Source of the DNA: a virus
Taxonomy: Duplodnaviria; Heunggongvirae; Uroviricota; Caudoviricetes
Virus record (IMG/VR): IMGVR_UViG_2909314774_000001
Strand: one strand, 5' to 3'
DNA length: 64,000 nt
Program-made: the position numbers and the translations under genes
Notes under the pieces: generated by a model
What the model saw: only the letters and a program-made list of their open reading frames with translations
Database searches by the model: none
What the model was told of the DNA's origin: nothing
Shown: in pieces, positions 51-56,000 of the stretch
Position numbering within the stretch: position 1 is the first letter of the stretch
How the letters are laid out: each line of letters opens with the position of its first letter

Positions 51-485
51 GTGGCGATCACCAATGGGAGTCACGATTATTACGATGGTCTGCTAATGGC
101 CTCAGTGTCGCCTGATGAGGCAGACAACTCTTTTGCCGTCTTCGCTATGGTTGGTTACTACATGGCTGCCGAAATTGAGAAGTTGCGGGCGCAGAGAGAC
201 GCATTAGCGGCGGAGAATGCAGCCCTGAAAGAATCTGAGCGAGCATTCGATGAGATGTGTGCCGACGAACACGGAGATAATTGGGTTAGCGAATTAACGG
301 AGACTCCAGCCACCGATGCTTTTCTGGCTGAAGTACGTGCGCAAGGCGTGGATATGGCTCGTAACGCGATGATTGATTTTGTTGATGGTGAAGTTGGGCC
401 AAACAAGAACGTTCCGGGGCTGATTAGAGGCGCAGAGATATGCGTAAGTATTGCTGAACAGCTTCGTAAAGGAGTCGAAGAGTGA
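51..485 (+). CDS. hypothetical protein; reading frame is open to the window start, so probably 5'-partial
   Basis: 144-aa ORF in track; no in-frame stop between position 3 and 51; stop overlaps next start (ATGA-type coupling at 482-485). Confidence 0.45.
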   Translation: MAITNGSHDYYDGLLMASVSPDEADNSFAVFAMVGYYMAAEIEKLRAQRDALAAENAALKESERAFDEMCADEHGDNWVSELTETPATDAFLAEVRAQGVDMARNAMIDFVDGEVGPNKNVPGLIRGAEICVSIAEQLRKGVEE

Positions 486-703
486 ATAAAGCAGAGTTAT
501 TTCAGAAAATATCGGCTCTCGCGACTGAATGCCACGCTATAGCATCTGAGTTTGATGTTGGCGATGAACGAACCGAGATGTTCGAAATATACAGTGTGCT
601 GCGCAATCTCTGTCGGCGTGGCTACGCCACTCAAGTAGGGCGAATGACTAACCCACTACTCTCATCCTGTGATGAGGATGACTCGGATGAGGATGACGAA
701 TGA
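482..703 (+). CDS. hypothetical small protein with acidic C-terminal tail (DEDDSDEDDE)
   Basis: 73-aa ORF translationally coupled to flanking ORFs. Confidence 0.45.
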   Translation: MNKAELFQKISALATECHAIASEFDVGDERTEMFEIYSVLRNLCRRGYATQVGRMTNPLLSSCDEDDSDEDDE

Positions 704-1365
704 TGCATAAATCAGTAGCCGGTGAGTTTCAGAAGGAAGTCGATAATACCACTGATCTATTGGACGATATTTTAAGCATTCTCGCGCTGCTTGAGGCTGG
801 CGATTGGTCAGAACATTGCACTAAAACAGAGCTAGGCGGTCGGCTTGAAAGAGAGATTACACGACTTATTGGTGATGCGCAGGAAGCTACAGTCACTAGT
901 TATGAGTTAATCGCTGAAGCCTGGCGTTTGATGGATGGACAAGATCCTAAAACCAGCGATTGGCATAGCAAGGCTTCGAAGTATTTAAATTCCGATAGGG
1001 TAGAAAAAGTTGATGATGTGAAACCGAAGCCAGTAGACCACGGTTTCCGCGATAACTGCGAATGCTCTAGTTGCCAGACCACGGCCCGTATTTGTTCCGA
1101 ATTGACAGATAAGTCCAGCCTAATCTACGAAGTTAATGTAGGCGGTAATACATGGGTCGAATGCACAAGAGCTGCATACGTAAGAGCAAAAGACAAGGGT
1201 GAATTAACCAGAGTTGTTACCAATCACCCAAATAATGAGCTTAAAGAGCACCAGATTCGAGAACTGGTGAACGAGTTGAGAGATATTGCGGTTCAGTACC
1301 ACGGAACGCAGCAATTGCGGGAGAAGATTGCCAGAGCAGTGAACAACTCAGTCCGTAAAAAATAA
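700..1365 (+). CDS. hypothetical protein (221 aa), Cys-containing
   Basis: ORF overlapping upstream stop; inverted repeat AGGCCCCAT/ATGGGGCCT right after the stop (1382-1405). Confidence 0.5.
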   Translation: MMHKSVAGEFQKEVDNTTDLLDDILSILALLEAGDWSEHCTKTELGGRLEREITRLIGDAQEATVTSYELIAEAWRLMDGQDPKTSDWHSKASKYLNSDRVEKVDDVKPKPVDHGFRDNCECSSCQTTARICSELTDKSSLIYEVNVGGNTWVECTRAAYVRAKDKGELTRVVTNHPNNELKEHQIRELVNELRDIAVQYHGTQQLREKIARAVNNSVRKK

Positions 1366-1804
1366 GCAATAGTACGATAAAGAGGCCCCATGCTCTTGAT
1401 GGGGCCTGTAGCAACTAGCGTTATGGACGCTGGTTTACGTACTCAATGATCGCTTTGATAATCGCGAACATCGGCGGCACGATTTTGAACAGTAAGTTAA
1501 CCATAACAGGCCTCACTTAGTTTTATCGCGCCTAGCTGCAAATACCTTTGGGCTTGCCTTTGCAGTTGCAATATCTGTAGTCGCCAGATACTTACGGCAC
1601 GATTTCGAGTTAAGGTAAGGTTTTAGAGTCACCAAAAACCTGGACTTAAATCTTCTTTGAGAACAACGATGTTTAGTAAATGGTCATTATTACCTGGTAT
1701 GACCACTCAACGTTTCTTGATGAATCCAGTACATTCGGTTAATCTTAATTCAGTCGCCAGATACTTATGGCTCAGGAACAGAGCCGCAAACTCTGTTTCC
1801 TTTT

Positions 1805-1836
1805 AAAAAGCCCAGCCTAGTCAACTGGGCTTTTTA
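1805..1836. terminator. intrinsic terminator-like hairpin (AGCCCAG / CTGGGCT followed by TTTTT, A-run upstream)
   Basis: GC stem with flanking A and T runs, potentially bidirectional. Confidence 0.55.
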
Positions 1837-2130
1837 ATGTCTATTTTTAACCCAATGAACCTTCAATACCGCAACATCAGTGTCTTGCGAATTAAGATAG
1901 TGTGAATAGATTTTTCATGCAAGTGCATAAGCCTGTGGATAACTCAGGAAGGAAAAAGTAGCTTCCGCGCAATTTAGGCCAGACAAGGCTTTCGCAAAAG
2001 TCAATGGGAAGTAAAAATTTGTTAAAAATAACGTTTGTTGGAATTGTATATATTTATGCCTTTCAATAGTTAGCATCTTATTAACATCTTTTTTAAGAGA
2101 TAGAGTTCAAAAATATATAGCTTCAACATA

Positions 2131-2150
2131 TACTGTATGTATATACAGTA
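2131..2150. promoter_or_regulatory. LexA (SOS) box TACTGTATGTATATACAGTA
   Basis: perfect CTGT-N8-ACAG palindrome 17 bp upstream of the umuD-like start. Confidence 0.8.
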
Positions 2151-2166
2151 TTAAGAGGCGAGTATT

Positions 2167-2556
2167 ATGGGCTTCCCTTCTCCTGCGGCGGATTATGCTG
2201 AGAGCCGTATTTCTCTTGATCAGCAGATAATTAGACATCCTTCAGCGACCTACTTCATGAGGGCAGCTGATAGTCATCATCGTGAGGGAATATTACAGGG
2301 TGCATTGCTGGTGGTCGATTCCTCACTTACCCCGGTTGATGGTTCTCTGCTTGTATGCGCTCTGGATGGGGAATATCGCGTAAAAAGATACCGGAAGTAT
2401 CCACGTCAGCATCTGGAGGATTTAAGAACCGGTAAGAAGGAAGCATTGCCAAAGGATGACGATGGATGCACGGGCAGCAATGCCGTGTTTGGTGTGATCA
2501 CTCACATTATCAACGACGCAAGAAGTGGCGAGTTTGATGATTGTCCCGTGATGTAG
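2167..2556 (+). CDS. UmuD-like S24 peptidase (UmuD'-length; begins at the GFPSPAADY segment that follows the UmuD self-cleavage site)
   Basis: translation aligns by eye to E. coli UmuD (GFPSPAADY..RI.L.Q..I.HPSATYF; conserved DS and VK(K/R) catalytic positions; VFGV(V/I)(I/T)H(V/I) near C-terminus); no umuC partner downstream. Confidence 0.75.
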   Translation: MGFPSPAADYAESRISLDQQIIRHPSATYFMRAADSHHREGILQGALLVVDSSLTPVDGSLLVCALDGEYRVKRYRKYPRQHLEDLRTGKKEALPKDDDGCTGSNAVFGVITHIINDARSGEFDDCPVM

Positions 2557-2567
2557 GAGAACTGATT

Positions 2568-2593
2568 AGGCGGTGCAATGCACCGCCTTTTTA
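2568..2593 (+). terminator. intrinsic terminator (GGCGGTGCA / TGCACCGCC + TTTTT)
   Basis: GC-rich palindrome followed by T-run immediately after umuD-like stop. Confidence 0.65.
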
Positions 2594-3694
2594 TCACACT
2601 GCGCGGAATGCGATTTCGCCAGGTATTACTTCACCTTGCCAATACATTTGGGCAGCAACGCGATCTGCGAGGTCACGATAAATAGCCGTAAATTCGCTAT
2701 CTGGACGACTAATAACGGTTGGTGTTCCGTTATCCAGATCTTCACGAAGAGAGATATGAAGTGGCATTTGGCCTAACAACTGCGTGTTGTATTTCTCGGC
2801 CAGTTTCTGTGCGCCACCGGTGCCAAAAATTGGCTCGTGATGACCGCAGTTACTGCAAATATGCACACTCATGTTTTCGACGATACCCAGTACCGGCACT
2901 TCGACTTTTTCGAACATCACAATGCCTTTCTTCGCATCGATCAGCGCGATGTCTTGCGGCGTAGTTACCACAACCGCACCAGTTACAGGAATGTTCTGCG
3001 CCAGCGTCAACTGAATATCACCAGTGCCCGGCGGCATATCGAGAACGAGATAGTCCAGATCAGGCCATAGAGTTTCCTGCAACATCTGCATCAGCGCCTT
3101 GCTGGCCATCGGTCCACGCCACACCATTGCATTGTCGTCGGTGACCAGATAACCAATAGAGTTGGTTGCCAGGCCATGAGACATGATAGGTGCCATGTGA
3201 GTACCGTCAGGTGAGGTTGGACGTTGGTTTTCCGCGCCCAGCATGGTTGGAATTGATGGACCATAGATATCGGCATCCAAAATACCAACTTTCGCACCTT
3301 CAGCAGCCAACGCCAGTGCCAGGTTCACCGCCGTGGAGGATTTACCCACGCCGCCCTTGCCTGAGCTGACGGCGATAATGTTCTTAACGCCATTAATGCC
3401 TGGTTGGTTTTTGACGCGCTTAAGCGTGGCAATGTTGTACGACAGCTTCCAGTCAATAGCCTTTGCGCCAGTGATACGGAGCAGATCACCACTACATTGC
3501 TCTTTCAGGTCTTCAAAAGGCTTATTCCACACGAAAGGCATGATTAGTTCGACATGCAGTGTGTCATCCATCAACGCAACATGGTGTAACGCTTTAAGCG
3601 TAGTCAGGTTGTGTTTCAGGGTTGGGTGCTGAAAATTAGCCAGCGTACCGGCTACCATTGCTCTCAGGGCATCCGGCGATTTGGACTCGCTCAT
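2594..3694 (-). CDS. apbC: iron-sulfur cluster carrier ATPase ApbC/Mrp
   Basis: 366-aa translation near-identical to E. coli Mrp (SSGKGGVGKSS P-loop, CxxC motif); divergent from metG as in E. coli. Confidence 0.95.
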   Translation of the reverse strand: MSESKSPDALRAMVAGTLANFQHPTLKHNLTTLKALHHVALMDDTLHVELIMPFVWNKPFEDLKEQCSGDLLRITGAKAIDWKLSYNIATLKRVKNQPGINGVKNIIAVSSGKGGVGKSSTAVNLALALAAEGAKVGILDADIYGPSIPTMLGAENQRPTSPDGTHMAPIMSHGLATNSIGYLVTDDNAMVWRGPMASKALMQMLQETLWPDLDYLVLDMPPGTGDIQLTLAQNIPVTGAVVVTTPQDIALIDAKKGIVMFEKVEVPVLGIVENMSVHICSNCGHHEPIFGTGGAQKLAEKYNTQLLGQMPLHISLREDLDNGTPTVISRPDSEFTAIYRDLADRVAAQMYWQGEVIPGEIAFRAV

Positions 3695-3851
3695 CCCGTC
3701 TCCTTTATTTTAATTTGCGCAATTGTCGCCTTGTAGTGTACTCCAGCTACGACATTTAATCATTTATGAGAAATGCTGTTATCACATGGCAGACATAAGG
3801 CCATTTTGTTACTATCAAGCCCCTTTTCACTACAAAGAAGTAATGCCTACT

Positions 3852-5885
3852 ATGACCCAAGTCGCGAAGAAAATTCTGGTGACGTGCGCGCTGCCGTACG
3901 CTAACGGCTCAATCCACCTCGGCCATATGCTGGAGCACATCCAGGCTGATGTCTGGGTTCGTTACCAGCGAATGCGCGGCCACGAGGTTAATTTCATCTG
4001 TGCCGACGATGCCCACGGTACGCCGATCATGCTGAAAGCACAGCAGCTTGGTATCACACCGGAGCAGATGATTGGCGAAATGAGTCAGGAACACCAGACT
4101 GATTTCGCAGGCTTTAACATCAGCTATGACAACTATCACTCGACGCACAGCGAAGAGAACCGTCAGTTGTCTGAGCTTATCTATACTCGCCTGAAAGAGA
4201 ACGGTTTTATTAAAAACCGCACTATCTCTCAGTTGTACGACCCGGAAAAAGGCATGTTCCTGCCGGATCGTTTTGTAAAAGGCACCTGCCCGAAATGTAA
4301 AGCGCCAGATCAATACGGCGATAACTGTGAAGTCTGCGGCGCGACCTACAGCCCGACTGAACTGATTGAGCCGAAATCGGTAGTTTCTGGCGCTACGCCG
4401 GTAATGCGTGATTCTGAACACTTCTTCTTTGATCTGCCCTCTTTCAGCGAAATGTTGCAGGCATGGACCCGCAGCGGCGCGTTGCAGGAGCAGGTGGCGA
4501 ACAAAATGCAGGAATGGTTTGAATCCGGCCTGCAACAGTGGGATATCTCCCGCGATGCGCCTTACTTCGGTTTTGAAATTCCGAACGCGCCGGGCAAATA
4601 TTTCTACGTCTGGCTGGACGCGCCGATTGGCTACATGGGTTCCTTCAAGAATCTGTGCGACAAACGCGGCGATACCACCAGCTTCGATGAATACTGGAAG
4701 AAAGACTCCACCGCCGAGCTGTACCACTTCATCGGTAAAGATATTGTTTACTTCCACAGCCTGTTCTGGCCTGCCATGCTGGAAGGCAGCAACTTCCGCA
4801 AGCCGACCAACTTGTTTGTTCACGGCTATGTGACGGTGAACGGCGCGAAGATGTCCAAGTCTCGCGGCACCTTTATTAAAGCCAGCACCTGGCTGAATCA
4901 TTTTGACGCCGACAGCCTGCGTTACTACTACACTGCGAAACTCTCTTCGCGCATTGATGATATCGATCTCAACCTGGAGGATTTCGTTCAGCGCGTGAAT
5001 GCCGATATCGTGAACAAAGTGGTTAACCTGGCCTCCCGTAATGCAGGCTTTATCAACAAGCGTTTTGACGGCGTGCTGGCAAGCGAACTGGCTGACCCGC
5101 AACTGTACAAAACCTTTACTGATGCCGCTGAAGTGATTGGCGAAGCATGGGAAAGCCGCGAATTTGGTAAAGCTATCCGTGAAATCATGGCATTGGCTGA
5201 CCTGGCTAACCGCTATGTCGATGAACAGGCTCCGTGGGTGGTGGCGAAGCAGGAAGGACGCGATGCCGATCTGCAGGCGATTTGCTCTATGGGCATTAAC
5301 CTGTTCCGCGTGCTGATGACGTACCTGAAGCCGGTACTGCCGAAACTGACTGAACGTGCAGAAGCATTCCTGAATACAGAACTGACCTGGGATGGTATCC
5401 AGCAACCGCTGCTGGGCCATAAAGTGAATCCGTTCAAGGCACTGTATAACCGTATCGATATGAAGCAGGTTGAAGCACTGGTGGAAGCATCTAAAGAAGA
5501 AGTGAAAGCAGCTGCCACGCCAGTAACTGGCCCGCTGGCAGATGATCCGATTCAGGAAACCATCACCTTTGATGACTTCGCCAAAGTTGACCTGCGCGTG
5601 GCGCTGATTGAAAACGCAGAGTTTGTAGAAGGTTCTGACAAACTGCTTCGCCTGACGCTGGATCTCGGTGGTGAAAAGCGTAATGTCTTCTCAGGCATCC
5701 GTTCCGCTTATCCAGATCCACAGGCACTGATTGGTCGTCACACCATTATGGTGGCTAACCTGGCACCACGTAAAATGCGCTTCGGTATCTCTGAAGGCAT
5801 GGTGATGGCTGCTGGCCCTGGCGGGAAAGATATCTTCCTGTTAAGCCCGGATGTCGGTGCTAAACCTGGCCACCAGGTTAAGTAA
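3852..5885 (+). CDS. metG: methionyl-tRNA synthetase
   Basis: translation from [26 protein letters not shown] matches E. coli MetG almost residue for residue (HIGH and KMSKS motifs); the ORF-track start at 3723 is an upstream in-frame extension. Confidence 0.97.
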
Positions 5886-5905
5886 TTAAGCAACCATTCT
5901 TCACA

Positions 5906-5934
5906 ATGCCCAGCAATACGCTGGGCATTTTCAT
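5906..5934 (+). terminator. metG intrinsic terminator (AATGCCCAGC / GCTGGGCATT + T-run)
   Basis: GC stem-loop plus T-run 20 bp after the metG stop. Confidence 0.7.
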
Positions 5935-6046
5935 ATAGACACAACCCCTTCTGACTTTAACAAACCCTAAAACAATTTGTTTTCTACCTTTTGTTGATTG
6001 AGATAATAAGCCACATAAGAAAACAAATTGTTTCGGAGTGGTTGAA

Positions 6047-6346
6047 ATGTTGAACATTACCCAAGCCTACCAGGTGGCATTGATCAGTTCATCTCATACA
6101 TCAGAGGAAGATGCTCGCCGATTCATGATCGCAAGCAATGAGCTGGATTGGGTTTCACAAATTGACGGCGGTTGTATTGTCCACGCCGGGTTACAGGATG
6201 ATGTCTGGAAAGAGGACTTGCGTCGATATGGTATATCCGAAGGCGCAATTGCTAACATTCAGAAAGTACTTGATGTAGGCTTTGACTGTGTACATTTTGA
6301 TTGTGGTGCGCCGATCGTTGAAGGGCTTGAGTGCTGGTGTTGGTAG
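6047..6346 (+). CDS. hypothetical protein, first gene of the foreign element (Cys-rich C-terminus ..HFDCGAPIVEGLECWCW)
   Basis: ORF preceded by two copies of the class-A palindrome (5969-5984, 6019-6034); ATG at 6047 preferred over the track start at 6038. Confidence 0.5.
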   Translation: MLNITQAYQVALISSSHTSEEDARRFMIASNELDWVSQIDGGCIVHAGLQDDVWKEDLRRYGISEGAIANIQKVLDVGFDCVHFDCGAPIVEGLECWCW

Positions 6347-6477
6347 AGTGTATAAGCGGATCAATGAGTTACGGAAACAGTTAATAATGAGGAGCTTGTA
6401 ATAAGCTGTATACCCTAGAAAAGCTAGACTAGGGAATAAAATGACGTGAAACTGGGCGGGACAGTAAATAATTCCGA

Positions 6478-7707
6478 ATGATAATTGAACAAATAACCCC
6501 TTGCTCGGAGCTTGGAATGACTGATACCGCTTTTTCAAAATCGTTACAAAAAGAAGTCGATCCTGAGCAGTACTTGGCGCTAAAGAATTTAGATGACAGC
6601 TCGGTTCATGCTATTGCCCGTGACGATATCATCTGCCCCATTTGCAAAGTTGGAGGTGGTTCGTTCGTTAGAGCCACTAGGAATGGTGGCTATCACAAGA
6701 AGGCGCATTTCAGATTTACCGGTGAAGATGGTCAAGGCCATCATCCATCATGTGATTTCTATGGAGATAGATTAACATCTGAGGTGAAGCAGCACCTTGT
6801 CTCATTCACAAAAGATCGAACAAAGTATTCGCAGGTAATACGAAAGCTGGTCTGTGCCGGCATACAGGAAGGGATATTTACTCAAGAAAAAATGTGGCAG
6901 ATGAGGGAATGGTTCTTCAATAAGCGAAAGGATTCCACATTTGAAATATGGTTAGAAAGCGAGCATTTAGACTGGCTTTATTATATTAGTGGGTTACGTG
7001 ATGCATATCTAGCATGGACAACTCCTGATATTCTACCTTTCGCGCCCATTCAGGTTACTGTCCCTGGTTTTTCTTGGAGGCGTGCGATTGACAAAGAGGT
7101 GCTAAGAGTTCACATCAAGACTCTCCAGCAATTGCGTGAAATTTCAGTCTCACATAGTGACATTGCTGTAATCTTAGAACACATAAACAATAATCGTGAC
7201 CGCACAATTCTCGATCCATCGCATTTGGAGGACGAGATAAGTAAGACCTATAAGCTTACTAGTTTTGTGATGGGCAATTACATTGAGTTTCAGACAAAAA
7301 CGGTTAGCGACAGAGCATACGGGGAAGCTAAGTTTCTGGCATTTGCAGCACTTTTGTTGTTCGTGTCAGATTGGGACCTCAACATTGCTATTGGTAAGTT
7401 TTCTAAGATTGCCAGAGTGAAGGAGGTTGATGACATGCTGGCTGGTAATTTCATTGGTCTTAATCCTTACTTCCGATACGACCTGGCTAATGCAGTGAAG
7501 AGATTGCAGGATAACTGGCCGATTGAATACCAAGAGTTGGAGCATTGGAATGTTGAGAAATCCATGCGTGACGCATATGAAAAGTGGCGTGCGACAGAGC
7601 CTGAATTCGCTCCACCCCTATTGCCAGACTTGTATATTGCCAAACATGAGAAAGAAGTCGCACAAGACGAGCAAGTCAGGCAGTGGATTAAGAACGGGGA
7701 TGTTTGA
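6478..7707 (+). CDS. hypothetical protein with N-terminal Cys/His cluster (CPIC ... HH..C), function unknown
   Basis: 409-aa ORF; no recognisable catalytic motif. Confidence 0.55.
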   Translation: MIIEQITPCSELGMTDTAFSKSLQKEVDPEQYLALKNLDDSSVHAIARDDIICPICKVGGGSFVRATRNGGYHKKAHFRFTGEDGQGHHPSCDFYGDRLTSEVKQHLVSFTKDRTKYSQVIRKLVCAGIQEGIFTQEKMWQMREWFFNKRKDSTFEIWLESEHLDWLYYISGLRDAYLAWTTPDILPFAPIQVTVPGFSWRRAIDKEVLRVHIKTLQQLREISVSHSDIAVILEHINNNRDRTILDPSHLEDEISKTYKLTSFVMGNYIEFQTKTVSDRAYGEAKFLAFAALLLFVSDWDLNIAIGKFSKIARVKEVDDMLAGNFIGLNPYFRYDLANAVKRLQDNWPIEYQELEHWNVEKSMRDAYEKWRATEPEFAPPLLPDLYIAKHEKEVAQDEQVRQWIKNGDV

Positions 7708-8148
7708 GTGTAATTAGCTTAATCAATCAGTTGATAATGGCGGTCACAATTTGATTCTTTTCTATAAGAACCCGTTGATCGCCACTACTCCCATCCCATA
7801 CCAGCAATCACATCATTAAATATCAATAGGTTAACGTTGTTTATACCAATAAGAAAACAACTAAATAACAGATCAACGAAACATCAACGCTTTCTCCCGA
7901 TTTGGTCTAAAAAATTGACGTTATCACACATCACTTCTTATACCCGTAATTCTACGCAGCAGATAGCGCCACAGCGTCCAAATTTCACCACAAACGACTC
8001 AACACACTACCAACAAAAACACACGCTCAAAATCGCTCCCGTTGCGTTACACAACCATATAAACAACTTATTTTCAGGCATAACAAAACAACTAAATAAC
8101 ACATATGACATTCCCCAAAACAACCAACCTCTTTATGGCAGGCTACCG

Positions 8149-8215
8149 AAAAGACCCACCTCTTCTCCCCAGGCTACCGGACAACCAACCTAACTTTCAC
8201 AGGCAATCCGAAAAC
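8149..8215 (+). repeat. three imperfect direct repeats CAGGCTACCG-N-CCAACCT inside a G-depleted tract
   Basis: repeat units starting near 8149, 8171, 8201; the same family recurs at 12135-12210. Confidence 0.5.
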
Positions 8216-8701
8216 ATTCATACGCGCGATACCCACGACACGCCATTCCCCAAACAGCGAAGAAACACCAGAATCACTGAAACCCCAACGAAGCCTGTTA
8301 CCGCAAGGTTTCTCTCAATCCCAAAAGACACGAAACATAACAATCACGGGAAACGCCATTACCCAATACACGAATAACTACAAAAGCCCTTCACGCACTC
8401 CAGACAAACAACTCAAACACAATAACGAAAGCAATCGCCCACCTGCCATTACTCCATACACGGAGAAGAACAATCACCAAAACGACGAGAACACCCCATA
8501 GAAGAACCACCGCAAAACGAACGAAACCATTTACACCGACAGAGAGAACAACACACCCAATTCACCAACAGAAATAGTCGCCGCATAGAACGTTCTGGAA
8601 GGAGTGAGCATTAACGCCTATAGAGAGGTTGAGACAGATAAAACACGAAGAAAACACAACATGTATAGCGAACAAGCCAGGTATGTATAAGTGGGGAGGG
8701 A

Positions 8702-8726
8702 AGGAGGTGTGTCGCCTCCTTTTTCG
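8702..8726 (+). terminator. intrinsic terminator (AGGAGG tgtgtcg CCTCCT + TTTTT)
   Basis: stem-loop with T-run at the 3' edge of the G-depleted tract. Confidence 0.6.
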
Positions 8727-8810
8727 TATTTATTCAACTCCTGATTTTATCCCCCGTAACACCCCTACGGTCAGCCTTCGGTCCATACAGGGAAAAGGCT
8801 GCATCCCGCT

Positions 8811-8930
8811 ACAGAAACGGCTGGGTTGCCTTCGGGGAACGGCTGGAGGTTTTCAGGGAAACGGTCGAGTTGCCTGTGTGGATTTCGGGAAACGGCTCGA
8901 TGCCGGTTCAGGAACGGTGGCGTACCGGTA
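8811..8930 (+). repeat. five direct repeats with core G(G/A)AACGG(C/T) at roughly 21-32 bp spacing (iteron-like)
   Basis: cagaaacggctgggttgcc / ggggaacggctggagg / cagggaaacggtcgagttgcc / cgggaaacggctcgatgcc / caggaacggtggcg. Confidence 0.6.
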
Positions 8931-9300
8931 TAGCGAGAGGGAGAGTTGCGGCTACCCACCTGTAATGTGCGGGAAGAAGAGAGGCGCTCACGTGCAGGCG
9001 GACTAACTTACCGTTGGACTCCCTCTGAATGCCCAACTACAGCGTAATTGTGCCAGAGAGTCAGCGGGTCACAATCGATTTCAGTAGGTTTTCGGGGAGA
9101 AGAAAATTCTGCCCACCAGCCCTGCGGCGCGCGTAGGGCAGAATATCGTAAATACTGGTTCCGTGTCGTTCCCGGATACTCACTACCCAGCCTGGCTTTC
9201 CCGACATAAAATCCTTTTCCGCCTTTGTCTTATTGCGATAATAACACCAACAAGTAAACAACATGTTTAGACGTTATATAAACGAAGTGAGGATGAAGAG

Positions 9301-9519
9301 ATGATTAAGATGCCTGTGACGGTTGAGGTGTGGGGCGTGGATTCCCTGGCTGAGTGTCTGGATGCAGTGGGGCCGGAGTTGTACCGCAAGTTGTGGTCGT
9401 TCGTCCCGGCAGAAGGGGAATCGCCCAAAGGGAAGGATATCTGGCACCTGCTGAGTGAAGATGAAAAGCGGGAGCTGGTGTACGCGGTACACAGCGAGTT
9501 CCCGGGCGACGAAGATTAA
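9301..9519 (+). CDS. small acidic early protein (72 aa)
   Basis: class-A palindrome at 9254-9270, RBS GAGGA, hairpin 9526-9547 downstream. Confidence 0.5.
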   Translation: MIKMPVTVEVWGVDSLAECLDAVGPELYRKLWSFVPAEGESPKGKDIWHLLSEDEKRELVYAVHSEFPGDED

Positions 9520-9525
9520 GAGTGA

Positions 9526-9547
9526 GGCCACCAGCACGGTGGCTTTT
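9526..9547 (+). terminator. hairpin GGCCACC agcac GGTGGC + TTTT (member of a repeated GGCCACCA..TGGTGGCC hairpin family)
   Basis: stem-loop followed by T-run; related copies at 11621-11640 and 12094-12116. Confidence 0.55.
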
Positions 9548-9657
9548 GTCGCTATTAACCTCCGGGCAGCGCAGCACCGTAACGATATACTTTGTGGCCG
9601 TTTTCTTACTGGTATTGTTTACGCAATTCAGAAAACAACATGTTTAAGGATTGCGTT

Positions 9658-9987
9658 ATGTTTGCAAATATCGACATCAACCAAATCAAGAAAATGACTC
9701 AAAAAGAGTTTGACCAGTTTTATGAGTTAGAAGGTTGGTCTTCCACGCTGATCAATTCGCGCTGGGTGCTTGAGCTGATGACTCGTGATGACGCACCTGC
9801 TTTGATGATTTGCGACATGGGTGAAGATGCTGACTTTATGGATATGAGCGAATTTTGTGTGGACACATACAACCGCAGCCAGAAGTACTACTTCACATGC
9901 GATAGCGAAAATGACGTGATTTCTAAGGTCTATCTTCACCTCGTCCAGCATTGGGACGTTCAGGAGTTTCTTGAAGTATTCGAGTAA
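9658..9987 (+). CDS. small highly acidic early protein (about 109 aa)
   Basis: class-A palindrome 9629-9647 upstream; many more Asp/Glu than Lys/Arg; hairpin AAGCCAGCATTGCTGGCTT downstream. Confidence 0.5.
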   Translation: MFANIDINQIKKMTQKEFDQFYELEGWSSTLINSRWVLELMTRDDAPALMICDMGEDADFMDMSEFCVDTYNRSQKYYFTCDSENDVISKVYLHLVQHWDVQEFLEVFE

Positions 9988-10141
9988 CCCCAACCAAAGC
10001 CAGCATTGCTGGCTTAACTTAATCTGTAGCCGCAGGGAAGAACCTGCATATCGCTCATGCGCCTGATCAATATGCTTTGTAGCCGCTTTCTTACTGGTAT
10101 TATTTACGCCATTGAGAAAACAAGTTGTTTACGGAGTTGTG

Positions 10142-10453
10142 ATGAAAAAATCATTGGTTCTTGGTCTGGACAAAGACCAGAAGAGAAAAGAGAAGCCTGC
10201 GCTGGTTGCTCAATTAACTTTGCTGGACATCGTTGCCAATGGAACCTCTATTCGTCTGTTCCGTGAAACAGCGGTGTCTTTCGATAAAAACACCTTTACT
10301 CGTTATGTAATGAATGTTCGTCGCCAGCGTGGAAAAGGCTGGGTAGCATTTCAAAGAATGTGGCCGGAACATCAGCTCGAACTGGCTTTGATGGAAGTTA
10401 ACCGCGTGGCCCAGCAAGAAATTCAGAGAGCATCAGTGATGGCAATAGCCTGA
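10142..10453 (+). CDS. small basic early protein (about 103 aa)
   Basis: class-A palindrome 10113-10130, RBS GGAG, terminator 10489-10516. Confidence 0.5.
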   Translation: MKKSLVLGLDKDQKRKEKPALVAQLTLLDIVANGTSIRLFRETAVSFDKNTFTRYVMNVRRQRGKGWVAFQRMWPEHQLELALMEVNRVAQQEIQRASVMAIA

Positions 10454-10488
10454 TAATGTGCAAGTGGTAATTAGTCGACAGTACGACA

Positions 10489-10516
10489 GCCCCGCCATCC
10501 TTACGGGGCTTTTTTG
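10489..10516 (+). terminator. intrinsic terminator (GCCCCG ... CGGGGC + TTTTTT)
   Basis: GC stem with strong T-run. Confidence 0.7.
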
Positions 10517-10579
10517 TATTGTAAGTACATACTTACGATCATAGAATATAAAAATAACCAATACACTACGGAGAGTGAA

Positions 10580-10975
10580 ATGACCGTTAAACGCGAAAAA
10601 CTGACAGTTGATGTTTACTATGCCTCTGAAACCGCCGAAGGTAAGAATGTGGCAAAAATCACCGTTGTTACGTACAACACCGAAACTGGTGCCGAAGTCC
10701 AGGCCAGTACGATCGTGCGTAAAGGTGATGCCTCCGGCGGCGAGTACGCGACTCAATACCAGTCTATTTTCGATGCAACTGACCCGCTGCTGCTGAAAAT
10801 CGAGAACTACTTCCGCCAGGTTGATGAAGAGGTGTTTGAAACCATGATGAATATGGTTAACACCGTATTCGCCTCCAACCTGAATACCAACACTACCTGG
10901 ATTGGTCAGTACGGCCTGCGCATTACCTCCGGCATTCCTGCTGACACCTTAATCCCTGAAAGCGTATTCGCTTAA
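10580..10975 (+). CDS. hypothetical early protein (about 131 aa)
   Basis: RBS GGAGAG before ATG at 10580; class-B palindrome GTAAGTACATACTTAC at 10521-10536 upstream; terminator 10996-11020. Confidence 0.5.
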   Translation: MTVKREKLTVDVYYASETAEGKNVAKITVVTYNTETGAEVQASTIVRKGDASGGEYATQYQSIFDATDPLLLKIENYFRQVDEEVFETMMNMVNTVFASNLNTNTTWIGQYGLRITSGIPADTLIPESVFA

Positions 10976-10995
10976 TCCTCTTTAAATGGCGCGTA

Positions 10996-11020
10996 AACCG
11001 CGCCATTTTCTTATGCCCGA
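10996..11020 (+). terminator. intrinsic terminator (ATGGCGCG taaac CGCGCCAT + TTTC)
   Basis: perfect 8-bp GC stem. Confidence 0.65.
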
Positions 11021-11092
11021 TAACAATTTGTTTTCTGCCTTATCTGATTTGTGAAAATGATTTCACTGAAGCAACTTAATAAGGAAACCATC

Positions 11093-11467
11093 ATGGGACT
11101 TGATATCTATATCGAGACACAGCCTAAAAACGATCTGAATAACGAGGCATCCAGAAAGCGGGTTGCTTACTTCCGTAAGTTCAATGCGCTCGTTGGGTGG
11201 ATGGAGCGCAACGTAGGTGAAGTCGAAAATTGTGAACTTTTAGAATTAACGATGAATGACATTTGTTTTCTGAAGGCTCATTTGATGCACATAAACGAAA
11301 GTAATTGCGAAGAGTACTTGCCTACCCGGGAAGGTTTTTTCTTCGGCAGTCAGGAGTACGATGAAGGTTACTGGCATGATGTGGGGGAGTTGAAAGAGCT
11401 TGTGGAAGATCTGATTAAGAACCACGACTTTCACAATAACAGACTGACCTTCTGCGCCTGGTGGTAA
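11093..11467 (+). CDS. small acidic early protein (about 124 aa)
   Basis: class-A-like palindrome 11023-11037; RBS AAGGAAA; ORF-track start 11051 also possible. Confidence 0.45.
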   Translation: MGLDIYIETQPKNDLNNEASRKRVAYFRKFNALVGWMERNVGEVENCELLELTMNDICFLKAHLMHINESNCEEYLPTREGFFFGSQEYDEGYWHDVGELKELVEDLIKNHDFHNNRLTFCAWW

Positions 11468-11796
11468 ATATGGGCGATTTCAAGAAACGCCTGAAGGAAA
11501 GAGTCGAGATGGTCAGAAAGCAAAACGCCTCTTCTGTCATCAGATACGCAAGGCAGTTTAGTCGCAACAACAAATCAGTTGAGGAAAAGATCCTTAGCGT
11601 AATCGGGCGATAATTATTAAGGCCACCAGCATTGGTGGTCTTAAATGACTTTTAATAACCGAAGGTTAGTTTGAAACCTGGCTATCAACTTCCAGAACCT
11701 TTCTTGTGTATTCAGCCTGTATTAACTTCTTTTATGCCTTATCTACACTGCGATAATTACATCAACAAGAAAACAACATGTTTACGCAGTGAGGAT

Positions 11797-12084
11797 ATGC
11801 TCATGACTGATTTCACCATTACCCCTAAAGCACAAAATGTATTTCTTGAATCATGGCTGGACTTGCCGGAAACAGAACAGCAAGAAATGGATCATGTGGA
11901 ATATGACGAGCAGGTAAGCACGCGATTCTTCCACTTTGAGGGCTGCGTTTACGACATTGCCGACTTCATGCGAGATGACCGCTTCCCTGAATGGCACGCA
12001 AGCTATCCACTAAACGCCTTCGCCATGCTGATGATCCGTGTGGATGATTCAGGGGATACCATCGACATCGGTCTGCTCCACTAA
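11797..12084 (+). CDS. small acidic early protein (about 95 aa)
   Basis: class-A palindrome 11767-11783; RBS GTGAGGA; conserved hairpin AGGCCACCAatgcTGGTGGCCT at 12094-12116 downstream. Confidence 0.45.
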   Translation: MLMTDFTITPKAQNVFLESWLDLPETEQQEMDHVEYDEQVSTRFFHFEGCVYDIADFMRDDRFPEWHASYPLNAFAMLMIRVDDSGDTIDIGLLH

Positions 12085-12134
12085 AGAGTAAGGCCACCAA
12101 TGCTGGTGGCCTTAAATGACCATCCTGTTTCCCG

Positions 12135-12210
12135 CAGGCTAAAACACCAACCTCTTACCTCCAGGCAACCGACAAACCCACCTGTTCCCGTCCGGCTACC
12201 GCAACTTTCC
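12135..12210 (+). repeat. second cluster of CAGGCTA/CCGGCTACCG-type direct repeats in a C-rich, G-poor segment
   Basis: gcaggctaaaacaccaacct / ccaggcaaccgacaaacccacct / ccggctaccgcaactttcc. Confidence 0.45.
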
Positions 12211-12287
12211 ACTTTGACGCCTTATTCGTACAACGATAATTAACACCAACAAGAAAACAATTTGTTATTTACGATAAGGAATTAATC

Positions 12288-12770
12288 ATGAATTTTATCG
12301 CTACTGTAAACGCACCCGCACATGGCAATATCGCTGTAACGTTCTCTGACATTGAAAAACGAGTACTTGGTGCATGGCGCGACAATGAGACGGTAGAACT
12401 GTCAGCACAAGAAAAATGCATTATTGCACGCGACATCATTGGCAATCGTCGTTACTCGCGGGTATTTGAGAAAGCGTATGTGGTAAATTCTGGATTCGGA
12501 ACGTTCGTCTTTCCGGTGCGCTCCGGGCGATTCTGCCAGTCCAAGCTGATTGAGTTCGCTACGCAGATTTCTGTCTGGATTAAAACTCAATCGTCGTTCA
12601 AATTTTCCGACGATGAAGCAGTATCGCAGGGGATGCGGATCGCCAACAATGCGATTAAATGCAAAAACATTACGTATACCGCTGGCGTTGACACATGGAA
12701 ACTGTTTTGCGCTAACTTTATGCTGAATGTATACGCAAGCAACCGCATCCACATCCTTGATGGCGTGTAA
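12288..12770 (+). CDS. hypothetical protein (160 aa) flanked by both direct-repeat families
   Basis: class-A palindrome 12254-12268; RBS AAGGAA; followed by hairpin AGGGCC agaaac GGCCCT. Confidence 0.55.
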   Translation: MNFIATVNAPAHGNIAVTFSDIEKRVLGAWRDNETVELSAQEKCIIARDIIGNRRYSRVFEKAYVVNSGFGTFVFPVRSGRFCQSKLIEFATQISVWIKTQSSFKFSDDEAVSQGMRIANNAIKCKNITYTAGVDTWKLFCANFMLNVYASNRIHILDGV

Positions 12771-12780
12771 CTGAGAAGAG

Positions 12781-12905
12781 GGCCAGAAACGGCCCTTTCT
12801 CTATAGCCACCAGCTGCCGCAGGGAAATTTTCAGAAACGGCGAGGAACGCATTCATGAGCCGACGGGAAACGGCCAGGATTTTTTCGGGAAACGGCTGCA
12901 TTCGC
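12781..12905 (+). repeat. second cluster of GAAACGGC direct repeats (four copies)
   Basis: ggccagaaacggccc / cagaaacggcgagg / cgggaaacggccagg / cgggaaacggctgc. Confidence 0.55.
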
Positions 12906-13386
12906 CTTTATATAGAAAAAACATCGGGAAGCTGGTGGAATCCAACCAGCGGTTGTCGGACAGGTGAGCGGGGAAAATTATGATGACTTTCGTCGCCTGA
13001 GACATCCAGATTTCTTTCGTAGCGTAATCACATATGTGATTAAGTGGTGTGATTATGTGAAAAATCACGCGCACATAATACGCGAGCGGATACGGAACAA
13101 AACAAAATGCCGATCCGCGCCGACAATTAAACGCGGATCACATAGCAAGAATAAAAGCCAATGATTAACCATACACCATAACGCAATATAACGCGATTTA
13201 AGCGCGTTAATGCGCTAAGTAATGGGTATGTACTGGTAAGGATATAAAAGCGCGTCTATGGCGTTATTTTGGCGCTTATTTTTATGTTGTTGGAGTGAGT
13301 CAAAGACAATAAAAAAAGCGCCATCATTGGCGCGTTATGGTGGAAGTATTGGAAACGAAAAAAGCGCCCATAGTGGGCGCTCGATT

Positions 13387-13617
13387 TTATTTATGTAAAC
13401 TGATTTCAAATCCCATTTCTACAAACGCTTTTAACATTAAAAATATATCAGCGTCATTCACGTCTGCTTTTTTTCGCTCCTGGTCGCTCAATAAGTCAAT
13501 TTTGCGCGTCGTTTCATCTATAAGCTCGACTGCGCGCCCAGCGTAACCAGCGATCCCAGCGATGCGATTAACAAAATATTCATTGCGCACGTTAACGCCA
13601 GCGATAAGAATAAACAT
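13387..13617 (-). CDS. hypothetical small protein (76 aa)
   Basis: ORF bracketed by two copies of hairpin GCGCCCATAGTGGGCGC (13363-13380 and 13634-13650). Confidence 0.4.
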   Translation of the reverse strand: MFILIAGVNVRNEYFVNRIAGIAGYAGRAVELIDETTRKIDLLSDQERKKADVNDADIFLMLKAFVEMGFEISLHK

Positions 13618-53146: not shown

Positions 53147-53815
53147 ATGACCAAGATCTTTGTGGTTGGCGGCACAAAGGGCGGGCCTGGCAAATCCACC
53201 GTTGCCCAGCAAATTGCCGTTTGCCTGAAAGTCAAAAAGAAGAAGAAGGTTTATATTACCGATATAGATATTCAGCGCACGACAACGAGCTGGTGTGAAG
53301 ACCGTCGACAGAACGAAGACCTTGAGCTGATTCCTTTTGCATACGTTCAGGATGACATCATTAAGCACCTAAAATCGCTTCAGGGTAGAGCTGAGTTTGT
53401 AGTGGTAGATGCCGGTGGCTTTGACTCCGAAATTCAGCGACAAGCGATGCTGATGGCTGACGTTATCATTATCCCGCTTCGTCCTAAGCGTCGTGATTTG
53501 AAATCTCTGCGTGACATTGATCCTATTATCGACAATGTTCGTAATGTAAACGATAAAGTGAAGGTCCGCGCGGTCATGAACCAGTGCCCGGCTTTGCCAT
53601 CACAAGTGTCTCGCATTCTGGCGGCTAAAGAGATTGTCGAGACGTTTGGCATCGAGTCTGCGCCAGTCAATCTATATAACCGCAACGTCTATGATGATGC
53701 GGAAGAGTCTGGTCGTTCTATCTTTGAAATGACCGGTAGCGAGCGCGACAAAAAGGCGGAAGCCGAGTTTGAAGAATTTGTAGATTATCTGTTGAGTCTG
53801 GAGGAAGAAGAATAA
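53147..53815 (+). CDS. ParA-type partition ATPase (small type Ib, ParF-like)
   Basis: deviant Walker A GGTKGGPGKST; 222 aa; class-A palindrome 53096-53112 upstream. Confidence 0.8.
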   Translation: MTKIFVVGGTKGGPGKSTVAQQIAVCLKVKKKKKVYITDIDIQRTTTSWCEDRRQNEDLELIPFAYVQDDIIKHLKSLQGRAEFVVVDAGGFDSEIQRQAMLMADVIIIPLRPKRRDLKSLRDIDPIIDNVRNVNDKVKVRAVMNQCPALPSQVSRILAAKEIVETFGIESAPVNLYNRNVYDDAEESGRSIFEMTGSERDKKAEAEFEEFVDYLLSLEEEE

Positions 53816-54174
53816 TGTCCATGAAAATGGGTGACCTAGCAAAGCGCAAAGAGCCTGATGCACCGGCTAAGAACACAACTCCTTTGCGCCAACCAGTCAG
53901 ACCACAGGGACGCCCGACTCGTGGCAAAGAGAAAATTAAAAGCCGCACAATGTCACTGGAGGACGAATACTTCGAACTGCTGGAGATGATGAAGTTCATC
54001 CCTCGCTTCGAGAAATTCACCCGCTCTGATGTGATTCGTGCTGCTATTTTCCATCTTGCGGAGAAGACACCGCAGGAAATCGAGGACATCGTGAAACTTA
54101 ACGAGGCGATCACAGCTGCCGATGTCACGATGCGTACCGATGAAATTAAACGCGAGTTGATGAAGAAAGGGTGA
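53815..54174 (+). CDS. ParG-like small DNA-binding partner (putative RHH)
   Basis: 119-aa ORF translationally coupled to parA-like gene; basic N-terminal tail. Confidence 0.5.
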   Translation: MSMKMGDLAKRKEPDAPAKNTTPLRQPVRPQGRPTRGKEKIKSRTMSLEDEYFELLEMMKFIPRFEKFTRSDVIRAAIFHLAEKTPQEIEDIVKLNEAITAADVTMRTDEIKRELMKKG

Positions 54175-54177
54175 TTA

Positions 54178-54200
54178 TATTGGGCGTTTGTTACGCCCAA
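54178..54200. terminator. hairpin ATTGGGCG tttgtta CGCCCAAT
   Basis: perfect 8-bp stem between the partition genes and the KAP gene; no clear T-run. Confidence 0.45.
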
Positions 54201-54225
54201 TATATGAGTTGAAGGATAGACACCA

Positions 54226-55932: not shown

Positions 55933-55940
55933 TAGATTAT

Positions 55941-56000
55941 GACCTGCTTCCGTATGTATTTAATAAGTTACTTATTATTTGTATATACAGAAGCAGGTCT
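55941..56000. repeat. second copy of the large palindrome (GACCTGCTTCcGTATgTA ... AATAAGTTACTTATT ... TATATACAGAAGCAGGTC)
   Basis: shares arms and core with 21049-21106; followed by TTTTAAAG. Confidence 0.75.

Follow-up and report, generated by a model that had tools for sequence, protein, structure and literature searches.

Known cargo slots of temperate phages include the P2/P4 hot spots and the lambdoid region between the replication genes and Q, and in phage P1 the C1 repressor exerts dispersed-operator control at scattered promoters through asymmetric operators. DUF5983 is described in the literature as a phage-derived domain found next to CbtA/CbeA, its gene following cbtA in CP4-44-type islands. 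Here, we analyzed a locus that shares traits with each of these systems, namely two plus-strand open reading frames (ORFs), ORF1 and ORF2, lying one after the other in a 64,000-nucleotide stretch of DNA (hereafter the window) from the Caudoviricetes record IMGVR_UViG_2909314774_000001. An initial annotation had placed both genes at the end of an integrated element. We found that ORF2 makes up an accessory cassette of its own, in a slot whose content is polymorphic, and that ORF1 and ORF2 do not form an obligate pair. The locus itself is a hot spot for accessory genes in the interior of an SSU5/pHCM2-like phage-plasmid and not an element end. The most likely reading of ORF2, to which we assign a probability of roughly 0.45, is that of a lysogeny-expressed, single-gene protective cargo acting against phages or mobile DNA.

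By comparing the window with complete records, we could assign it, on sequence grounds, to a circular ~110-kb SSU5/pHCM2-like phage-plasmid. The circular 112.9-kb E. coli plasmid pECAZ155_2 matches it at 99.5% identity across the locus, at 99.7% over 5800–8000 and at 99.3% over 1915–8492, about 35 further plasmids of 107–115 kb match the stretch 5800–8000 at 98–99.5% identity, and the genome of phage Cyrano (OV696614) is collinear with positions 470–6337 (98% identity), resuming from 7731 on. The element is a member of the SSU5/pHCM2 group, and ORF2 orthologues are found at the matching place in phage SSU5, in pHCM2 of Salmonella Typhi and in Klebsiella plasmids. The genes metG and apbC, which had been taken for chromosome, are annotated together with an S24 peptidase gene within the plasmid records and the Cyrano genome, with Ead/Ea22-type phage genes farther left. 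ORF1 and ORF2 are therefore not the first genes inside an element next to a chromosomal junction, as metG and apbC are plasmid-borne and have phage genes on both sides. Nor do they sit beside an attachment (att) site, since both flanks are phage-plasmid sequence in the circular records and no such site is present. No integrase gene is annotated in the matching pECAZ155_2 stretch, and no tRNA gene was found at the ORF1–ORF2 locus. A plasmid-borne metG can thus pass for a chromosomal junction, and knowing so avoids mis-calling such plasmids integrated prophages. Clinical E. coli, Shigella, Salmonella Typhi and Klebsiella frequently carry SSU5/pHCM2-like phage-plasmids, which are mostly dismissed as cryptic.

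When the window is aligned with Cyrano, the cassette that holds ORF2 is swapped for 785 bp with a gene encoding a 244-amino-acid coiled-coil protein, while the flanks keep 94–98% identity. The borders of this slot are exact, with the ORF1 stop codon (6346) on the left and GTTGATAATGGCGG at 7731 on the right. By taking a census in complete E. coli genomes, we found the right-flank region in 244 of them, always on plasmids. The slot contained ORF2 in 35 plasmids, the 244-amino-acid coiled-coil gene in 29 and a pair of genes for 61 and 186 amino acids in 66 (105 if at least partial pairs are counted), and it was empty in 76, where 22 bp lead from ORF1 to the flank. An example of a natural phage-plasmid with the empty slot is pSEV1_2. 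The initial annotation had proposed comparing the locus among related elements for variability, and this comparison indeed reveals at least four slot states among ~244 E. coli phage-plasmids that are otherwise 93–98% identical, ~85% of these relatives not carrying ORF2. The alternative occupants (244, 61 and 186 amino acids) gave no significant Pfam or PADLOC match, and no flanking repeats hinting at site-specific exchange were seen by eye at the cassette borders.

Exchange has also left its mark between the two genes. ORF2 shares 88% identity with its pHCM2 copy whereas ORF1 shares just 45% with the pHCM2 ORF1, therefore a recombination breakpoint lies between both genes. In SSU5 and in the Pantoea and RIT691 contigs, a small ORF of 63–66 amino acids (SSU5_106-like, ending ...WKIINN) stands between the DUF5983 gene and ORF2. 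It is absent or degenerate in the window, where a ~12-codon remnant is left within 6347–6516, as well as in Klebsiella, Pectobacterium and IncX1 plasmids. Looking for a conserved RNA or small partner gene 5' of ORF2 across contexts, we found just this decayed ORF remnant. In Kluyvera phage-plasmids (L009 and L010, ~7550–7860), a GIY-YIG-like ORF (...GIYLLTDVDGEKLYVGQ...) replaces DUF5983 directly upstream of an 89%-identical ORF2, and it could be a homing-type nuclease with a role in cassette mobility.

The locus resembles the morons and variable slots of temperate phages by its exact borders, its conserved flanks and its several mutually exclusive contents, and an ORF2-family gene is also found in the replication–Q slot of lambdoid prophages. 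It differs from them in having its slot inside a prophage of plasmid form, where there is no att site close by, and none of the four slot occupants could be matched to a known family of defence, counter-defence, toxin or virulence genes. A further likeness lies in expression, the Cyrano lysogen transcribing the slot occupant while its neighbours stay silent. Indeed, in the uninduced LF82 lysogen grown in LB, the occupant CYRAN_102, listed as a moron by the Cyrano authors, has log2 values of 6.0/5.6, rising to 9.2, while the ORF1 orthologue CYRAN_101 (97% identical) reaches 2.8/3.0 for a floor of 2.32 and CYRAN_103, downstream of the slot, stays at the floor (PMC9928086, S1 Table). Variable presence among near-identical elements, a moron trait, also holds for ORF2 (35 of ~244 E. 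coli phage-plasmids). An exact-bordered backbone slot cycling among at least four unrelated cargoes is a concrete place to seek the traits that such elements confer.

The second frame is open from an ATG at 6478 to 7707 (409 amino acids), as initially reported. Its start is most likely the ATG at 6517, giving 396 amino acids, because all homologues begin with MTDTAFSK there, a GGAG is found at 6507–6510, and both the RefSeq protein WP_023908297 and PHROG 12525 agree with this start. The later start is also favoured by the promoter candidate at 6458–6485, which reaches downstream of the ATG at 6478 and is the sole promoter-like match within 5800–9700 (9 of 12 consensus positions). Both ORF1 and ORF2 are real genes, since ORF1 has 112 homologue clusters and ORF2 is under strong purifying selection, with a ratio of non-synonymous to synonymous substitution rates (dN/dS) of 0.06–0.12 against orthologues at 75–89% nucleotide identity. 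Neither gene is unannotatable as had been stated, in the sense that ORF1 matches DUF5983 and PHROG 5003 and ORF2 matches PHROG 12525 (695.5 bits, E = 4e-209; residues 14–408 of the 409-residue version against model positions 1–396 of 399), although these families are of unknown function. With ORF2 as query, a genome scan with close alignment returned five loci, a word-indexed search 34 clusters, Enterobacterales throughout, and a full profile search over 1.84 billion representatives 178 clusters (defined at 50% identity), 82 of them at E <= 1e-30. All full-length members are ~360–400 amino acids long, and the 178 representatives display one architecture with no domain fusions.

The N-terminal CPIC...HH..C cluster pointed out at first is present and conserved. 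In an alignment of 44 homologues reaching down to 19% identity, its C40, C43, H75 and C79 are invariant, as are M1, S7, E13 and D37, and the motifs FRF, R130/W132, LLLF.S.W and GN.IGLNP are near-invariant. Strands are predicted at 49–51 and 64–66, between the two ligand pairs, which gives the knuckle, beta-hairpin and knuckle arrangement of a zinc ribbon. ORF2 is thus predicted to carry a zinc-ribbon-like metal site with Cys2-His-Cys ligands. Structure prediction, also proposed initially, yielded a confident model (predicted local distance difference test, pLDDT, 83.6; predicted TM-score, pTM, 0.74) in which the first ~100 residues form a beta-rich, zinc-ribbon-like domain and the remainder an all-helical one, but this model has no structural neighbour in the PDB or among viral structures. 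Searching Pfam, NCBIfam, PADLOC and PDB sequences with the single sequence or with profiles of 25 and 44 sequences returned nothing significant. Against PADLOC-DB v2.0.0 the best match had E = 0.007 over 30 residues, and none of 44 diverse members gave a credible one. A weak resemblance of the N-terminus to the eIF2-beta/eIF5 domain (PF01873; E ~0.03) failed three further checks and was discarded. A literature search on the RefSeq accession found no publication. In many phage-plasmids of Enterobacter hormaechei, the ORF2 orthologues (86–87% identity) are recorded as fragments of 246 and 235 amino acids, so that ORF2 may be split or decaying in this lineage.

In other genomes, the ORF2 family is seen to travel as a lone gene that has spread across types of mobile elements, in Alpha-, Beta- and Gammaproteobacteria. 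A chromosomal islet of Pectobacterium brasiliense carries a copy between ychF and transporter genes, and the shared stretch there is the ORF alone, starting 11 nt ahead of the ATG and ending 6 nt short of the stop codon. Relatives lie between the replication genes and the Q antiterminator gene in lambdoid prophages of Klebsiella, with a SocA/Panacea gene and a pyocin S module nearby, and of Salmonella. Another relative stands between the relaxase/coupling-protein genes and the pilus genes of a conjugative element. The Salmonella prophage has a DUF5983 C-terminal fragment and a small-ORF remnant upstream of an intact ORF2, and DUF5983 C-terminal remnants are also found just upstream of ORF2 in the Pantoea and RIT691 contigs. 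The remnants of DUF5983 and of the 63–66-amino-acid ORF in the Salmonella prophage and in Pantoea show that a phage-plasmid once donated the block and that ORF2 alone stayed intact. Among 50,697 phage records, four have an ORF2 match, all of them SSU5-like temperate elements, and no homologue was found in the virulent phages of this set.

Several relatives adjoin known defence genes, and we verified the Lamassu, Gabija and Septu neighbours with PADLOC. In a Yersinia integrative element, the relative adjoins a complete Lamassu system (LmuA 529, LmuC 233 and LmuB 815 bits), with ArdC and CbtA genes nearby. On the Rhizobium leguminosarum plasmid pR132503, the family gene starts 70 nt after GajB on the same strand (GajA 925 and GajB 788 bits), within an integrase-bounded island (L029, 1033–15517) that holds GajA, GajB, the ORF2-family gene, a gene for 266 amino acids, a reverse transcriptase, a transposase, PtuB and PtuA. 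On IncX1 plasmids of Salmonella Dublin, Shigella and E. coli, members at 29–30% identity have an AbiD fragment or a NACHT gene as neighbour. Like the Rhizobium protein, these IncX1 proteins are true family members, with an hhalign probability of 100%, E = 1e-43 to 1e-46 and all motifs retained. ORF2 is comparable to the single-gene Abi or 'PD'-type defence proteins known from defence islands, being a stand-alone protein of ~375–400 amino acids found on prophages, plasmids and integrative or conjugative elements, with relatives next to Lamassu, Gabija, Septu, AbiD or NACHT genes. It differs from these proteins by having no PADLOC v2 match and no nuclease, NTPase, TIR, SIR2, protease or transmembrane module.

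A protective role for ORF2 is suggested by its variable presence, the expression of its slot in the lysogenic state, its spread over element types, its absence from virulent phages and its repeated adjacency to defence genes. ORF2 is a self-contained cassette placed right after the ORF1 stop with its own promoter-like site and no palindrome of the kind found at ORF1 (see below), and it has been swapped between phage-plasmids by recombination. In such a scenario, it would be expressed in the lysogenic (plasmid) state and would guard host and element from rival phages or other mobile DNA. Recognition would fall to the invariant N-terminal segment together with the Cys2-His-Cys zinc module, and the effector or oligomerisation role to the conserved helical domain. 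As a defence gene, ORF2 would be one not described so far, given the absence of a PADLOC match and the published DefenseFinder negative for pHCM2-like plasmids. We also consider, more tentatively, that ORF2 might found a new family of single-gene immunity against phages or mobile DNA, with at least 178 clusters, a fold absent from the PDB and from viral predictions, the N-terminus and zinc module as sensor, and a spread as a naked gene among phage-plasmids, lambdoid prophages, integrative and conjugative elements and IncX plasmids. With its confident model, its lack of a known fold and its clear residues to mutate, ORF2 is a single gene that lends itself well to study as a candidate for a new function in immunity.

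A number of observations weigh against a protective role. No PADLOC v2 model matches ORF2, and the pHCM2-like plasmids, home to the 88% ORF2 orthologue, came out of a published DefenseFinder v1.3.0 screen with no defence system. The association with defence islands is anecdotal, coming from a handful of inspected loci, and no known defence neighbour was found in the Ralstonia, Acinetobacter, Pectobacterium and conjugative-element contexts. The position of ORF2 is fixed, as that of a backbone gene would be, in the phage-plasmids SSU5, pHCM2 and those of Klebsiella. As for expression, the lysogen data belong to the allelic cassette CYRAN_102 and not to ORF2, and the ORF2 promoter remains a candidate matching 9 of 12 consensus positions. 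Finally, we can name no effector domain of an enzymatic, membrane or nucleic-acid-binding type, which makes any mechanism past the zinc module and helical domain speculative. ORF2 is, all told, a reasonable candidate for a defence gene. The initial annotation had thus described real genes and a real metal-ligand motif while misreading their context. Its idea of lysogenic-conversion or defence cargo does not hold for ORF1, a backbone gene, and it was partly right for ORF2 by a wrong route, as ORF2 is accessory and possibly defensive on other grounds, that is its slot, its lone mobility and its defence neighbours. Conserved synteny with a core function, which had been named as evidence against cargo, is found by half: the ORF1–ORF2 order is kept in SSU5, pHCM2 and Klebsiella, and no core function is attached to it.

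Next after a protective role, we rank the possibility, unlikely in our view, that ORF2 is a counter-defence or host-takeover gene acting early after entry, against for example Gabija or Lamassu, or redirecting a host process. Such genes too cluster with defence genes and fill polymorphic slots, and the lack of a recognisable enzymatic domain is typical of inhibitor proteins. ORF2 also lies in a region of small genes, between Ead/Ea22-type genes and a run of small ORFs, and the ArdC gene near the Yersinia relative, as well as the place of another relative between relaxase/coupling and pilus genes, would suit this role. However, a counter-defence gene fits poorly with the absence of homologues in virulent phages, with a lone copy in a Pectobacterium islet that has no mobile-element genes, and with the Rhizobium member placed closely behind GajB on the same strand inside a Gabija/reverse transcriptase/Septu island. 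Moreover, ORF2 does not have the palindrome of the neighbouring small-gene promoters, its allelic cassette is expressed in the uninduced Cyrano lysogen, and 396 amino acids is large for a stoichiometric inhibitor. We regard as quite improbable that ORF1 and ORF2 form one two-gene system, for instance toxin/antitoxin-like, as could be proposed from DUF5983 adjoining CbtA toxins in islands, downstream of cbtA according to the literature. The phage-plasmids SSU5 and pHCM2 and those of Klebsiella and E. coli do have the two genes side by side in the same orientation, and the DUF5983 remnants upstream of ORF2 in the Salmonella prophage, Pantoea and RIT691 indicate that the block once moved together. 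Yet ~85% of the E. coli phage-plasmids have ORF1 without ORF2, and ORF2 is intact where ORF1 is missing or fragmentary, so that an obligate pair was rejected on co-occurrence, each gene being found intact without the other. Their histories are discordant as well (45% and 88% identity to pHCM2), the Cyrano ORF1 orthologue is silent whereas the slot gene is transcribed, and a spacer of 131–170 nt with a promoter-like site separates them.

It is even less probable that ORF2 is a housekeeping protein of the phage-plasmid which acts on the adjacent 1.5-kb non-coding region in lytic replication, packaging or regulation. This region directly follows ORF2 in every phage-plasmid that has ORF2, and a zinc-ribbon-like domain along with several conserved basic residues would be compatible with such a task. 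On the other hand, ~244 E. coli phage-plasmids carry the non-coding region and just 35 carry ORF2, and this region is missing from the prophages, IncX1 plasmids, integrative and conjugative elements and chromosomes where relatives of ORF2 were found. The model of the initial annotation, in which the pair is terminal cargo of an integrated element beside an att site and a chromosomal metG, retains next to no probability. It could draw on metG and apbC, which look chromosomal by function, and on the G+C content, which falls from ~0.51 to 0.43 past metG. Against it, complete circular ~110-kb plasmids and a phage genome record match the entire stretch, including metG and apbC, at 98–99.5% identity, phage genes continue left of apbC, and the integrase annotation and tRNA gene mentioned above are missing. 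Collinearity on both sides of metG also excludes a phage-plasmid integrated exactly at metG.

ORF1 was found as initially described, a 99-amino-acid frame ending in ...GLECWCW. It matches Pfam PF19419 (DUF5983) above threshold (41.6 bits, E = 1.6e-10, gathering cut-off 27), residues 15–102 of its 102-amino-acid GTG-start version aligning to model positions 3–90 of 90, as well as PHROG 5003 (function unknown). A profile search returned 112 homologue clusters in Salmonella, Klebsiella, Escherichia, Citrobacter, Cronobacter and Raoultella, and all listed close homologues carry PF19419. Because these clusters are nearly all on ~110-kb contigs of these genera, ORF1 is a conserved backbone gene of SSU5-like phage-plasmids. 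The Cys-rich C-terminus that had been highlighted is present in the sequence but not conserved, orthologues ending in LPAWDW, with two Trp kept and nothing else. A metal site made by these cysteines was therefore rejected. Conserved residues include H17, G42, G78, F84, D85, A88 and W99, and the confident structure model of ORF1 has no neighbour in the PDB. Compared with the YeeW-like DUF5983 proteins of CP4-44-type islands, ORF1 passes the Pfam threshold across the whole domain. In those islands, however, DUF5983 adjoins cbtA, whereas ORF1 has no CbtA or CbeA gene nearby and follows metG. Likewise, the gene upstream of the ORF1 orthologue in SSU5, pHCM2 and Klebsiella is another small gene and not CbtA/CbeA. 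ORF1 is 33–53% identical to most other DUF5983 members, its own subfamily being that of the SSU5-like phage-plasmid backbone.

The putative ORF1 promoter contains two copies of the palindrome AAACAAnnTGTTT. In the whole window this sequence gives 27 strand-matches (14 sites) where 2.5 matches are expected, and none of 100 shuffles reaches 27. It recurs shortly after the -10 element of a dozen promoters. Starts include 5970, 6021, 9256, 9633, 10118, 11021, 11771, 12255, 21145, 21170, 53099 and 56866, and the sites precede the starts of many plus-strand genes. A recurrent layout, made of a GATAAT -10 element, 12–13 nt, the palindrome, 15–25 nt, and a Shine-Dalgarno sequence with ATG, is found at ORF1, at no fewer than seven other small genes (including those at 9.2–12.3 kb), at parA and elsewhere. 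The sites look like a dispersed operator set, or regulon, of the phage-plasmid. Given the position of the palindrome and the silence of the ORF1 orthologue in the Cyrano lysogen, ORF1 would be repressed jointly with the other genes that have such promoters during plasmid maintenance. The likeness to the P1 C1 system lies in a short conserved site repeated at many promoters scattered over a phage-plasmid, that of ORF1 included. The sequence is another one, and AAACAAnnTGTTT is a true palindrome whereas the P1 operators are asymmetric.

To the right of the slot, the backbone region at 7731–9269 had no feature annotated by the Prokaryotic Genome Annotation Pipeline (PGAP) in 30 of 30 records sampled from the 244 E. 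coli ones. It shares ~68% nucleotide identity with SSU5, pHCM2 and Kluyvera, is A/C-rich at 7830–8600 (A 39, C 31, G 12 and T 17%) and has a hairpin followed by a T-run at 8698–8724, and an Rfam scan of 5800–13500 returned no RNA family. ORFs within it are probably non-coding, since their translated identity to SSU5/pHCM2 (42–48%) is below the nucleotide identity and no PGAP feature is annotated. Its counterpart is transcriptionally silent in the Cyrano lysogen (PMC9928086). As a guess, the region might be an origin-like element, an insulator or a site for Rho loading. Some plasmids have IS3 and IS1 insertions in it.

Table 1. Positions of the features discussed (window coordinates unless a locus handle, L, is given; ligands in 396-amino-acid numbering).
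Feature	Position	Strand	Description
S24 peptidase gene	2167–2556	+	Pfam Peptidase_S24 match; carried by the phage-plasmid
apbC	2594–3694	-	Phage-plasmid-borne, not chromosome
metG	3852–5885	+	Phage-plasmid-borne, not chromosome
Putative ORF1 promoter	5963–6033	+	-10 GATAAT at 6002–6007, between two perfect AAACAAnnTGTTT copies
Palindrome AAACAAnnTGTTT (13 bp) at ORF1	5970–5982 and 6021–6033		Perfect copies
ORF1	6047–6346	+	99 amino acids from ATG; GGAG 8 nt upstream of ATG
Exchangeable cassette	6347–7730	+	~12-codon small-ORF remnant, promoter-like site, ORF2
Sigma-70-like promoter candidate for ORF2	6458–6485	+	GGGACA, 16 nt, GATAAT; no AAACAAnnTGTTT palindrome
ORF2 (most likely start)	6517–7707	+	396 amino acids; predicted N-terminal beta/zinc-ribbon-like domain and all-alpha C-terminal domain
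Predicted ligand C40	6634–6636		C-x2-C...H-x3-C
Predicted ligand C43	6643–6645		C-x2-C...H-x3-C
Predicted ligand H75	6739–6741		C-x2-C...H-x3-C
Predicted ligand C79	6751–6753		C-x2-C...H-x3-C
Right flank of slot	7731–9269	.	Conserved ~1.5-kb backbone region with no annotated gene
SSU5_106-like ORF or remnant	L018 5777–5968		
SSU5_106-like ORF or remnant	L015 ~6810–6970		
SSU5_106-like ORF or remnant	L011 and L012 ~7550–7970		

Left of ORF1, the block formed by the S24 peptidase gene, apbC and metG (2167–5885) is found in E. coli-type phage-plasmids and not in SSU5, pHCM2 or the Klebsiella plasmid. At its place, SSU5 and pHCM2 have an HD-domain gene and ydfZ, and the Klebsiella plasmid has several genes, one of them with an NYN domain. 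Expression in the Cyrano lysogen is good for the S24 peptidase gene (log2 ~7.4) and apbC (~6.7) and low for metG (~4) (PMC9928086).

Elsewhere in the window, the phage-plasmid carries a cluster of three tRNA genes (Asn-GTT, Tyr-GTA and Thr-TGT) at 63637–63883. Directly past parA (53147–53815) and a gene for 119 amino acids, a low-G+C island at ~54000–56000 (30–33% G+C) encodes a KAP-family P-loop NTPase of 568 amino acids (54226–55932; Pfam 25.8 bits for a cut-off of 20). After ORF2, this gene is the second candidate for accessory or defence cargo, in this case of recent acquisition.

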